From the sequence record MK373794.1: DNA of 64,000 bases, one strand, 5' to 3'. Source of the stretch: Escherichia phage vB_EcoS_HdK1. Position 1 is the first letter of the stretch. Every line of letters starts with the position of its first letter. A model generated the notes under the pieces. It made no database searches and was not told the origin of the DNA. It saw only the letters and a program-made list of their open reading frames with translations. A program made the position numbers and the translations under genes. Shown here piece after piece: positions 13,013 to 32,130 of this stretch.

Positions 13013-13573
13013 ATGTCTAAAATTCTGTCAGCTCCGATGCTTAATTTGCGAGCTACCAATTCAATTCTTCTGTCTGCTGTTCGTCGTGGTGCAATCACTG
13101 AACTTGCAGATGTTATCGTTCCAGAGATCTTCGTACCGTATGTGCAGAACCGCACAACTGAAAAGTCCCGACTGATCCAGTCTGGTGCTATTGAGATTTC
13201 TGAGCGTCTTAACGCTGCATTGATGGGTGAAGGTACTACCTTTAACCAGCGTTTCTTCAAAGATCTGGATCGTGACGAAGAAAACGTTTCAAGCGCAAGC
13301 GATTCAACCGATTCTACTCCTGGTGGTATCAAATCTGGGCGTGAAATTCAGATCCGTCTGTCCCGTAACCATTCCTGGGGTTCTGCGGACCTGCTGGACA
13401 GCCTGATCTCCCCGGACCCGCTGGATGCTATCATTAACTTAGTGGCAAGCTACCGTCAGAGCCGTCTGCAACGTGCATTCGTTGCAACTGTCAGTGGTGT
13501 GTTTGCTATGAACGCCGCTGCTCTCCGGTTGGTTCCGGTGATAAGAAGTCTACCCATGTTCAGAACGATATGA
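13013..13573 (+). CDS. major capsid protein, N-terminal fragment (gene interrupted by frameshift)
   Basis: ATG at 13013 with GGAG RBS; ORF terminates at 13573 while the capsid-like sequence continues in the -1 frame. Confidence 0.7.
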   Translation: MSKILSAPMLNLRATNSILLSAVRRGAITELADVIVPEIFVPYVQNRTTEKSRLIQSGAIEISERLNAALMGEGTTFNQRFFKDLDRDEENVSSASDSTDSTPGGIKSGREIQIRLSRNHSWGSADLLDSLISPDPLDAIINLVASYRQSRLQRAFVATVSGVFAMNAAALRLVPVIRSLPMFRTI

Positions 13574-14130
13574 CCCATGATATCTCTGGTTCATCCTTCA
13601 CTGATGGTGTGACTAACTTCAACCCGGCCGGTGTTATCCTGGCGGCTGGTACTATGGGTGACTCCCTGAACGACCTGTCCATGATGATGGTTCACAGTGT
13701 GGTTTACCAGCGTATGCAGCTGATGAACCTGATCGACTTCATCCCGGATGCCCGTGCTGAAGTAATGATCCCAACTTACATGGGCCGTGAAGTTATCGTT
13801 GATGATATGATGCCTCACGATAGCGGTAAGTACGAAACCTGGCTGGTCGGTCGTCGTGGTGCATTCCAGTTAGGTGTTGGTTCACCGAAAGTTCCTGTTG
13901 AAACTGAACGTAAACCTGCGTCCTACAAAGGTGGCGGTTCTGAAATCCTGTTCCACCGCTGGGAAAACATCATTCACCCTGTCGGTCACGCATGGGTTGG
14001 TACTGCTGCTGAAGGTGGCCCGGATAACGCCGCTCTGAAGACTGCTGCCAACTGGGCTCGTGTATTCCCTGAGCGTAAACAGATTAAGATTGCTCGCCCT
14101 GATCACTCGCGAACACGCTTAATGCTTTAG
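13570..14130 (+). CDS. major capsid protein, C-terminal fragment
   Basis: Open frame continues upstream of 13570 into the previous ORF (GSGDKKSTHVQND...); combined length about 370 aa fits an HK97-fold capsid protein. Confidence 0.7.
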   Translation: MTHDISGSSFTDGVTNFNPAGVILAAGTMGDSLNDLSMMMVHSVVYQRMQLMNLIDFIPDARAEVMIPTYMGREVIVDDMMPHDSGKYETWLVGRRGAFQLGVGSPKVPVETERKPASYKGGGSEILFHRWENIIHPVGHAWVGTAAEGGPDNAALKTAANWARVFPERKQIKIARPDHSRTRLML

Positions 14131-14140
14131 CCATGTAATT

Positions 14141-14166
14141 AAAGGGGCCTATATGGTCCCTTTTTT
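14141..14166 (+). terminator. terminator-like hairpin after the capsid gene
   Basis: aagggGcc tatat ggtCcctt stem (one mismatch) followed by TTTTTT. Confidence 0.45.
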
Positions 14167-14179
14167 GTTAGGAGGAAAC

Positions 14180-28220: not shown

Positions 28221-31200
28221 CTCTGAGCAATTTGCATTGCAGGCGTCTGAATCCGCTGCTAATGCTAAGAAGAGTGAGCTTAACGCAGAGACAAGTAAAA
28301 ACTCTGCTGCAACGGATGCAGCGTCAGCTCTGCTGTCAAAACAGGAATCTGCTGCTAGTGCGTCTTCCGCATTGCAATCCAAGAACGCTGCGGCTGGTTC
28401 TGCTACATCAGCTCAACAAGCTCTTACTGCTGTGCAAGGACTCAAGGCTGAAGTCCAGCAATTAAAAACCGACACGCAGCATATTAAAGAAGAGGGTGTC
28501 GCTGAAGTAACAGCTCTCAAGAATGCTGCAACTACTTCGGCCAACAATGCTAAAGCATCAGAAACTGCATCTGCTAATAATGCGACTTTGGCTGATACTA
28601 AAGCAAAGGAAGCGTCTGTAAGTGCAACCACCGCTAATCAAGCGAAAGTAGCTGCTGAGGCAGCAAAGGCCGCATCCGAAGCAAGTGCAGTTGAGTCCGC
28701 TACTTCTGCCGGTAAATCGCAGACCGCAGCTAATGCAGCTAAGGCAAGTGAGACGGTTGCAACACAGAAGGCAGCTTCGGCGTCTACGTCTGAAACTAAT
28801 GCGGCAGCTTCCGCTCAGACTGCGACTAACAAAGCTGGTGAGTCCGCCGCTAGTGCTACCGCAGCTAAGGCAAGCGAAACTAATGCTAAAACTTCAGAAA
28901 CTAATGCTGGTACATCAGCTGGAAGATCTGAGTCTGCTGCTTTACGCTCAGAAGCTGCTGCCCAACGTGCGGAAGACATTGCTGATGCAATTGGTCTTGA
29001 AGATGCAACTTTAACTGTTAAAGGTATCGTTCGTCTTAGCAATGATACTAACAGCACTGCTGAAAACCTGGCAGCTACGCCAAAGGCTGTTAAAACAGTC
29101 ATGGACGTTGCTAATACTAAAGCTCCGTCAAATAGTCCTGTTCTAACTGGCGTACCAACGGCACCAACTCCAGCACCTGAAGTTAATAACAATCAGATTG
29201 CCACAACTCAGTTTGTACACCAAATTATAAGCGCACTGATTGGTGATGCACCAGACGCGTTAAACACTCTGAAAGAGTTAGCTGACGCTCTTGGTGATGA
29301 TCCGAATTTTGCAACGACGATAACCACACTTATTAACAGTAAGTTGGCTAAAGATCAAAATGGTGCTGACATTCCTAATAAGCAACTGTTCATTGATAAC
29401 GTTGGTCTACGTGAGACTGTCAACTTAGCTCTCGGTGCATTGAAGAAGAACCAAAACGGTGCAGATATACCGGATAAAGGTGTCTTCCTTAATAACATCA
29501 ATGCTGCCAGCAAGACGGATATGGCCGCCAAGAAAGGTATGAGATATACTGTGGTCAATGCCCCAGCGGGAGTTGAAGCAGGTAAGTTTTATCCTGTTGC
29601 GATTCGTCGTTCTTCTGGATTCAGCAGTGAATTAGCATCCAGGGTGACAATAAGTACAGGTTCAAGAACGGGAAACCATAGGTTGAACAACTGCGAGTTC
29701 AATGGTTTTGTTATGACTGGTGGTTGGACTGACAGGGGACGTTATGCTTATGGAATGTTCCACGCATATACTGCAAATGAACGTGCTATTCATTCCATTC
29801 TGATGAGTAATAAAGATGATGATCTGTGCTCTGTGTTCTATGTCGAAGGTGAAGCGTTCCCTATCTCTGTATATGTAGAAGAAGGTTTATCTGTTGTTGC
29901 ACCATCTGCCGACTATGTTGTCGGACAAACGACTTACAAATGGGGTGCTACAGACCCTGGAACAGAATGCGTGGCCGCTGAAACTGTACTTAATTTCTCC
30001 AATGGTAGAGGATTCTATAGTTCGCACGCACTCCTCACAAATGCGGATATTAGTGGCAATAAAATTTACGCCAACGGTGAAATCGTAGCTCGCGGTGAGA
30101 ATCAAGTTCGCATGATTGGTGGGGACTACGGTGCGTTATGGCGTAACGACGGTGCCAAGACCTATCTCTTATTTACCGCTAAAGGCGATCAATACGGTGG
30201 TTGGAACGATTTAAGACCATTTATGATTGATAACGCTACTGGTGAGTTTACCATCGGTACTAAATTGAACGCCGGTCAAGGTGTGAATGGTAACGCATCC
30301 AGTGCTACTAAGTTACAAACAGCGCGTAAAATTGGTGGCGCCTCATTTGATGGTACTGCTGACGTCAATCTTCCAGGCGTTAACATTCAGGGTAATCAGA
30401 ACACAACTGGTAATGCGGCAACTGCCACCAAACTACAGACAGCACGTAGGATTGCCAATGTGCCTTTTGATGGTAGTGGCGATATATCGATTCCAGCTAG
30501 AAACGTGAATGCGTTTGCGTTAGGTTTGACTCAAATAGTACAAGATCCAGAAGATGGAAATCTATCTAATGGTGTACCTTGGAATGCTATAACCGGTGTT
30601 TACAGACAACAAGGTATAGGAGCCTCTAATATTGTTGCTCATTTTTGTGATGGTGGTGGTTCAACACCTTCTTTGCAGATAAGAGCTATGTATAGGAATG
30701 GTGGTCTTTGGTATCGTACATCACGTGATGGTTATGGTTTTGAAGAAAACTGGGATCAAATTTACACTAAAAAGAACCCGCCTCCGGCTGGCGAAACCTT
30801 ACCTGTAGGTGTTCCATTACCGTGGCCCACGGATACACCTCCGTCCGGTTATATTGTAATGCAGGGTCAACCCTTCGATAAAGCTGCATACCCGAAACTT
30901 GCTGCTGCATACCCGTCGGGTGTACTTCCAGACATGCGTGGTCAAACTATCAAAGGTAAACCAGCAAGCGGTCGTGACGTACTTTCTACAGAAGCTGATG
31001 GTGTGAAATCACATACTCACACTGCGTCTACTGCATCTGTCGATCTTGGAAGCAAGACAACTTCTAGCTTTGATTATGGTACTAAAGGGACAAGTAGTTT
31101 CGACTACGGTACTAAGACGAGTAATAATACTGGTGCGCATACACATGGTATTAGCGGAACAGCAAATAGTGCAGGTGGGCACCAACACCATAGTTCTGGA

Positions 31201-31551
31201 CCATATGCGAATTCTAGTGATAGTGATCTCTTTCCTAACGGTTATACCCAGGTTTCAGTCACAAACAAACCAGTTGTACCACGGCAAGGTGGCGCAGGTA
31301 TGACCCGTGTATCAGGGAAGACATCATCAGATGGAGCACATACCCACTCGTTATCCGGTAGTGCCGCAAGCGCAGGTGCTCACGCACACACTGTTGGTAT
31401 TGGTGCTCACACACACTCAGTCGGTATTGGTGCTCATAGTCATACAGTCGCTTTAGGTTCACACAGCCACGGTGTTACAGTTAACGCAACTGGTAACACG
31501 GAAAACACCGTTAAGAACGTTGCATTCAACTATATTGTGAGGGCTGCTTAA
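28117..31551 (+). CDS. tail fibre protein, main fragment
   Basis: 1,144 aa; long Ala/Ser/Thr-rich repetitive shaft; C-terminal Gly/His-rich repeats ([41 protein letters not shown]); followed by a Tfa-like gene. Confidence 0.7.
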
Positions 31552-31637
31552 TGTCTTTTGAAATGAGTAATGAAGACCAGACTGTAACTGTGTACGACTA
31601 CTCCAATGATACGGGGCGAATATGTGGGAACCCGTGA
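31551..31637 (+). CDS. tfa: tail fibre assembly protein Tfa, N-terminal fragment (frameshifted)
   Basis: [22 protein letters not shown] parallels lambda Tfa N-terminus [23 protein letters not shown]; stop after 28 codons, next to a run of four G. Confidence 0.7.
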   Translation: MSFEMSNEDQTVTVYDYSNDTGRICGNP

Positions 31638-32130
31638 AGCGTATGTGGTGGCCAACACAGGTCTTCCAGCATGTTGTACTGATATGGAGCCTCCAGTGGC
31701 TCCAGAAAATCATGTGGCAGTATTTAGACCGGAAAGTCAGGTATGGATTCTGCGTGAAGACCATCGAGGGAAAGTTGTATATGATAAAGATACAGGACTT
31801 CCTTTAGTGATAACCACAATAGGATCTCTTCCGGATAATGTAACCTATATTGCTCCCGATGGTGAACACATGAAGTGGAACGGCGATATGTGGGTAAACG
31901 ATCCGGACGCACAACATGCTAAGTCGGTTGCGGATGCAGCACAACATAAAACGGATCTTCTTAATTTAGCAGATTATAAAATCAGTATTCTGCAGGATGC
32001 TGTGACTTATAATCTAGCTACTGACGAAGAAAGTTCGATGCTTGACTCCTGGAGAAAGTTTCGCGTACTTGTCAACCGTATAAACGAAAACAATCCACAG
32101 AATATTATCTGGCCTGAGTCTCCAGAATAA
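31606..32130 (+). CDS. tfa: tail fibre assembly protein Tfa, main fragment
   Basis: EYVGTREAYVVANTGLPA...VWILREDHRGKVVYD parallels lambda Tfa EFIGEGDAYIPPHTGLPA...WHLVEDHRGKTVYD. Confidence 0.75.
   Translation: MIRGEYVGTREAYVVANTGLPACCTDMEPPVAPENHVAVFRPESQVWILREDHRGKVVYDKDTGLPLVITTIGSLPDNVTYIAPDGEHMKWNGDMWVNDPDAQHAKSVADAAQHKTDLLNLADYKISILQDAVTYNLATDEESSMLDSWRKFRVLVNRINENNPQNIIWPESPE

Follow-up and report, generated by a model that had tools for sequence, protein, structure and literature searches.

The window analysed here, that is, the whole stretch of 64,000 nucleotides (nt; 44.06% GC), is the first part of sequence record MK373794 (64,059 bp), the genome of Escherichia phage vB_EcoS_HdK1 (HdK1), and its positions 13013 to 32130 hold a module of head and tail genes that runs from the major capsid gene to the gene for the tail fibre assembly protein Tfa (Table 1). 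We compared the window with three reference relatives, the Nonagvirus (Queuovirinae) siphophages of E. coli JenK1 (NC_029021), vB_EcoS_HdSG1 (HdSG1; MK373795) and 9g (NC_024146), to which its region 12800-32200 is 97.5%, 97.6% and 95% identical in nucleotide sequence, respectively, and whose head-tail modules have the same gene order; the layout of the window as a whole is that of HdSG1, direct terminal repeat included. Base-level alignment to these relatives demonstrated that seven genes in 13013-32130 shift frame at 11 small insertions (eight of one base, two of two bases and one of three), and the comparisons described below suggest that these breaks belong to the deposited record rather than to the phage.

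In JenK1, HdSG1 and 9g the capsid gene (1104 nt), the gp07-like head-module gene (669 nt), the adaptor gene (504 nt) and the tape measure gene (3261 nt) are each a single open reading frame (ORF), and the side tail fibre occupies about 3.6 kb, which is annotated as two coding sequences (CDS) in HdSG1. Ten further public assemblies (L009-L015, L017, L018 and L020), mostly contigs from metagenomes or read archives, were picked because they encode proteins identical to the portal protein or to the product of the ORF at 32325-33038, and are 95.5-98.9% identical to the window. Genes called in them yielded a capsid protein of 367 aa, a gp07 homologue of 222 aa, an adaptor of 167 aa, a tape measure protein of 1086 aa, a fibre in one piece and a Tfa of 192 aa.

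A preliminary description, made from the letters of the window alone, had placed breaks in the capsid, head-module, adaptor, tape measure, fibre and Tfa genes, and had suggested that most were insertions of one base and that each gene goes on in a neighbouring frame. All of these breaks were found, none more than about 15 nt from the interval given for it (the G inserted into the tape measure gene at 20281-20284 lies 14 nt before its interval), and the alignment of junctions to close relatives that it had proposed located an indel, in each case an insertion, at every break that it listed. Searches with HdSG1 proteins (tblastn) confirmed that every broken gene continues in another frame, at 87-100% identity. 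Three of the insertions in the region had been missed, namely the three-base event near 13850 and the C at 14097 in the capsid gene, and the two bases at 19408 in the T part of the tail-assembly chaperone gene. The statement that the tape measure and capsid breaks do not lie in homopolymers was only partly right: the capsid break is a duplicated CT dinucleotide, but both tape measure insertions extend short runs.

The deposited annotation follows the broken frames. Window ORFs matched deposited HdK1 proteins exactly, as follows: 13570-14130 is QBQ80928.1 (HdK1rev_00024), 14684-14863 is QBQ80930.1, 19499-20335 is QBQ80941.1 (annotated "tape measure domain protein"), 27885-28220 is QBQ80949.1 and 31606-32130 is QBQ80951.1. 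In an exact protein look-up, each of these five truncated proteins was seen on one contig only, and the GC content of the window is close to the 44.07% printed for HdK1 in Table S4 of PMC6563267. The capsid gene is the most complex case, with insertions that sum to six bases: the upstream frame ends at a stop at 13573, and the frame is wrong between 13521 and 14097. We considered whether the three capsid insertions could be a compensated frameshift and rejected this, because 192 of the 367 codons would stay out of frame. Members of the capsid protein cluster (238 members) are 367 aa long, with a few of 359 aa, among the matches listed.

Table 1. Genes, private indels and other features of the window. 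Indels were placed by alignment to relatives; L numbers denote further public assemblies.
Feature	Position	Strand	Remark
Major capsid gene	13013..14122	+	1110 nt here; 1104 nt / 367 aa in relatives
Capsid private +2, CT to CTCT	13521..13522	+	Not in JenK1, HdSG1, 9g, L009-L012, L014
Capsid private +3, GTC tandem duplication	13850..13852	+	Absent from JenK1 and HdSG1, the relatives compared there
Capsid private +1 C, CC to CCC	14097..14097	+	Near 3' end; puts reading back in original frame
Head-module gene, homologue of JenK1 gp07 (222 aa)	14687..15357	+	Three frames
Head-module private +1 T, TT to TTT	14845..14845	+	
Head-module private +1 T, TTT to TTTT	15133..15133	+	
Head-tail adaptor Ad1 gene	15703..16207	+	Two pieces; 167 aa in relatives
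Adaptor private +1	15809..15815	+	Ambiguous placement: alignment to JenK1 gives T at 15809, to HdSG1 or 9g G at 15813
Tail-assembly chaperone G-like ORF	18686..19114	+	Intact; 143/143 identical to JenK1 gp14
Slippery heptamer T_TTT_TTC	19105..19111	+	Right before TAA stop; ORF ends ...C_CTT_TTT_TTC_TAA
Tail-assembly chaperone T part private +2 (GC)	19408..19409	+	Last 29 codons corrupted
Tape measure gene	19499..22761	+	Three frames; 3261 nt / 1086 aa in relatives
Tape measure private +1 G, GGG to GGGG	20281..20284	+	
Tape measure private +1 C, C to CC	21443..21444	+	
Side tail fibre gene	27885..31551	+	Broken after codon 104; one gene of 1176-1231 aa in L017, L018
Fibre private +1 G, GG to GGG	28196..28198	+	
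Tfa (tail fibre assembly) gene	31551..32130	+	580 nt here; repaired 579 nt = 192 aa
Tfa private +1 G, GGG to GGGG	31613..31616	+	
HslV-like gene	6027		-1 private indel
Rz-like gene	6701		-1 private indel
DpdA gene	37500		Private indel, not a multiple of three
Private indel, not a multiple of three	41696		Outside 13013-32130
Two genes without assigned function	42778; 44147		Private indels; 44147 is +2 (GA)
Sak4-like gene	48506		+4 private indel
Primase/helicase gene	55703-56901		Seven private events; at 55879 an A-run grows from three to eight
Right-end genes	59167, 59985, 60237		Private indels, not multiples of three

The insertions are private to this one record. Ten of the 11 were not found in JenK1, HdSG1 or 9g, the three-base event near 13850 was not found in JenK1 or HdSG1, the two relatives whose alignments passed the flank filter there, and all 11 were absent from the ten further assemblies, judged at each site on whichever of these cover it. 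The capsid junction with its CT insertion had no exact match in viral_contigs, and thus no independent copy there. Under identical criteria, the window carries 24 distinct private indels that are not multiples of three, compared to two in HdSG1, none in JenK1 and one in 9g, and both of those in HdSG1 are T-runs in a non-coding repeat. Natural indels within genes among the relatives are multiples of three (3, 9, 15 or 24 nt).

With the 11 insertions deleted, all seven genes are restored and free of internal stops, and their products are 98-100% identical to those of JenK1, the mosaic tip of the fibre excepted. Of the repaired products, the chaperone T part is identical to its JenK1 counterpart throughout (113/113), the adaptor differs from it at a single position (167/168), and the capsid protein (gp05), the head-module protein (gp07) and the tape measure protein (gp16) match at 362/368, 220/223 and 1080/1087 positions, respectively. 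To quantify selection on the parts of these genes that would be out of frame, we counted substitutions against JenK1 in the ancestral frame, and found 129 synonymous and 30 non-synonymous changes there, compared to 28 and five upstream of the breaks; purifying selection on that frame is thus still visible, and relaxed selection downstream of the breaks was not seen in this comparison. Private substitutions, mostly transitions, amount to 1.0% in the window and to 0.9-1.9% in the relatives, and substitutions beside the indels, as would mark locally bad sequence, were not in excess (two seen, about five expected). The possibility that these are pseudogenes in a decaying genome was rejected, because the non-synonymous fraction is not raised and the substitution load is like that of the relatives.

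Examination of the remainder of the window revealed that the problem is genome-wide. The preliminary description was correct that structural genes are broken, but the damage is not confined to them, since DpdA, the primase/helicase gene and others are broken too. We identified about 29 private events that are not multiples of three in 57 kb, or about one per 2 kb, which corresponds roughly to a quality value of 33 (QV33), and about 18 of the private indels fall outside 13013-32130, in non-structural genes. Among the 54 HdSG1 genes tested, at least 13 have window counterparts that run over more than one frame, while others are truncated (a Sak4-like gene and gene 00087). The events have a characteristic signature, with 26 insertions and only three deletions genome-wide (P=1.5e-5), and all 20 single-base insertions copy the base next to them (expected by chance at 0.437 each, P ~6e-8), 13 of these being G or C in a genome of 44% GC (P=0.047). 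Multi-base events are mainly tandem duplications (CT, GTC, AACG), AAAAA lengthens an A-run, and the two-base insertions at 19408 (GC) and 44147 (GA) each double two adjacent bases. The events are also clustered: one stretch of 1.2 kb holds seven of them (P=0.0006), whereas other stretches of 6-7 kb have none.

HdK1 was isolated and propagated on E. coli, its host range was assayed, and transmission electron microscopy shows normal siphovirus particles (PMC6563267). Because the indels are private, genome-wide and repairable, selection is unchanged, and the phage has been isolated and propagated and forms normal virions, we conclude that the frame breaks most probably arose as errors of consensus or assembly in the deposited genome of HdK1, a Nonagvirus, and are not biology (probability about 0.93). 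The preference of the preliminary description for sequencing or basecalling error over gene loss in a viable phage is thus upheld. The real HdK1 would almost certainly encode an intact capsid protein, head protein, adaptor, chaperone, tape measure protein, fibre and Tfa, and what lies beneath the errors is an intact head-tail module of the usual Nonagvirus kind. The 11 extra-base events are confined to the window.

The pattern would fit a technology whose errors are mostly indels and lean to insertions, or a long-read consensus that was left unpolished and had poor support in some regions. Korf et al. 2019 sequenced some of their phages on the PacBio RSII with HGAP3 and others on the MiSeq with SPAdes, and state a coverage of 228.7x and 100 CDS for HdK1, compared to 93 CDS in HdSG1 (PMC6563267). 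A long-read consensus problem is our guess at the source of the HdK1 errors, the platform being inferred and not shown. Like unpolished long-read or flow-chemistry assemblies, the window has private, indel-only errors at a normal substitution rate, extensions of a neighbouring base or a short repeat, an inflated CDS count, and damage to essential and non-essential genes alike. Unlike them, it is biased to insertions and to very short runs (one base to two, or two to three) rather than to long homopolymers. Several points weigh against a record error. At the stated 228.7x coverage, a well-polished consensus should far exceed QV33, so that something specific must have degraded the HdK1 assembly; the three-base insertion near 13850 in the capsid gene could be a genuine in-frame variant as well as an error; and the error status is inferred and not directly demonstrated.

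The stated coverage is also what speaks for the insertions being real mutations, in a lysate where a defective or highly mutated genome prevailed, since the indels stand in a consensus deposited at that depth (PMC6563267). However, a strictly lytic phage with frameshifts in its capsid, tape measure, adaptor, fibre, primase and DpdA genes cannot propagate, whereas HdK1 makes plaques and normal virions; selection is not relaxed downstream of the breaks, the substitution rate is normal, and no related assembly carries the indels, all of which makes this explanation very improbable. Programmed recoding, by ribosomal frameshifting or transcriptional slippage, is harder still to credit. Although several insertions lie in short runs and a genuine-looking -1 site (T_TTT_TTC at 19105-19111) is found nearby, the 11 sites share no slippery heptamer, the sites are conserved in none of the relatives, which encode the same proteins in a single frame, and recoding would be needed three times in the capsid gene and seven times in the primase gene.

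A further explanation, raised as a speculation in the preliminary description, concerns how an error would arise, namely that 7-deazaguanine (dG+, archaeosine) modification of the DNA disturbs the polymerase or the basecaller at modified sites. The window has the full modification cluster, with homologues of DpdA, FolE, QueD, Gat-QueC and QueE, and some restriction enzymes fail on HdK1 DNA (PMC6563267). In CAjan, a phage of the same subfamily that shares the deazaguanine pathway, the nanopore signal is disturbed at preQ0-modified GA/GGC sites (PMC7544227), and a position of the GA/GGC type, a motif borrowed from this sister-genus phage, is touched by 21 of 27 insertion points in the window, compared to 13.8 expected (P ~0.005); the preponderance of G and C among inserted single bases points the same way. 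However, the literature states that the dG+ motif of Nonagvirus is unknown, so that the GA/GGC test depends on the motif of CAjan, and a control with all 16 dinucleotides placed GA only fifth (z=1.5), behind CC/GG (z=4.0) and CG (z=3.6). Because these outscore GA, the GA/GGC signal appears to be a general G/C-context effect, not a specific association with the CAjan motif. In addition, the errors cluster regionally whereas GA sites occur everywhere, and HdSG1, which comes from the same study and genus and has the same gene cluster, carries only about one tenth as many private indels and is largely free of such errors. Disturbance by the modification is therefore unlikely as an explanation of the errors, and we regard it as a possible contributor and not the cause. 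It is more doubtful again that the insertions are the footprint of individual dG+ positions, left when a modified G made the polymerase stutter or was miscalled in single-molecule sequencing; if this were true, their G/C-rich contexts (GG/CC runs and CpG) would hint at the Nonagvirus dG+ target motif. A literature search returned no specific remark on frameshifts in HdK1, or on errors of PacBio in the sequencing of modified phage DNA.

The value of these observations is as a warning to database users, and there is no new biology in the frame breaks. About 29 frame-disrupting indels in MK373794 fragment at least 13 genes, including those for the capsid, tape measure, fibre, primase/helicase and DpdA proteins, and truncated HdK1 proteins such as QBQ80928.1 and QBQ80941.1 should neither represent their families nor be cited to show that a gene is split.

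In this region, the one frameshift likely to have biological meaning is a predicted -1 site at the end of the intact chaperone G-like ORF. From 19111 on, the -1 frame stays open into the ORF at 19159-19506, directly upstream of the tape measure gene, and the JenK1 homologue carries the domain PF23812 (Phage_TAC_18). The heptamer at 19105-19111 is thus probably a genuine programmed -1 frameshift site of the G/GT type, as a candidate identified from sequence. Its likeness to the G/GT system of phage lambda lies in the X_XXY_YYZ heptamer before a stop, the open -1 frame and the position before the tape measure gene; it differs in that the frameshift in the window is a prediction, and none of the breaks listed in the preliminary description has these features. 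The G and T parts of the chaperone are annotated as separate genes in the relatives.

Records of the relatives contain split annotations of their own in the fibre and Tfa genes. A repeat of the form GGAT(CT)nTCCGG in the tfa gene (window 31823-31832) is in frame in the window and in 9g, but has lost one base in JenK1 (23618-23645) and has gained two, an extra TC, in HdSG1 (31671-31736), and for this reason the tfa genes of JenK1 and HdSG1 are each annotated as two CDS. Among the matches listed, Tfa cluster mates are 192 aa long, with one of 188 aa, and the Tfa of 9g is also 192 aa. Because most listed cluster mates have this length, the repeat may be in error, or prone to slippage, in the JenK1 and HdSG1 records. 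The side tail fibre of HdSG1 is annotated as two overlapping CDS (27681-29750 and 29710-31398) and is one gene in JenK1, 9g, L017 and L018; this split could mark a true mosaic junction, or one more frameshift in a record from the HdK1 study. A look-up of the J-like protein matched only JenK1.

Other differences between the window and its relatives have a different character. Two stretches, at 29513-30778 in the distal fibre and at 38888-38975 near the FolE/QueD junction, diverge sharply from JenK1 and HdSG1, and look like ordinary recombinational exchange among relatives, not errors. Length differences of 15, 15 and 24 nt at window positions 27694, 47796 and 59195, respectively, are in frame and lie at short tandem repeats. 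The two copies of the direct terminal repeat, at 1-3308 and 60693-64000, are 100% identical, and the repeat length that they imply is 3,367 bp, a minor mismatch with the value printed as '3,48' for HdK1 in Table S4 of PMC6563267.

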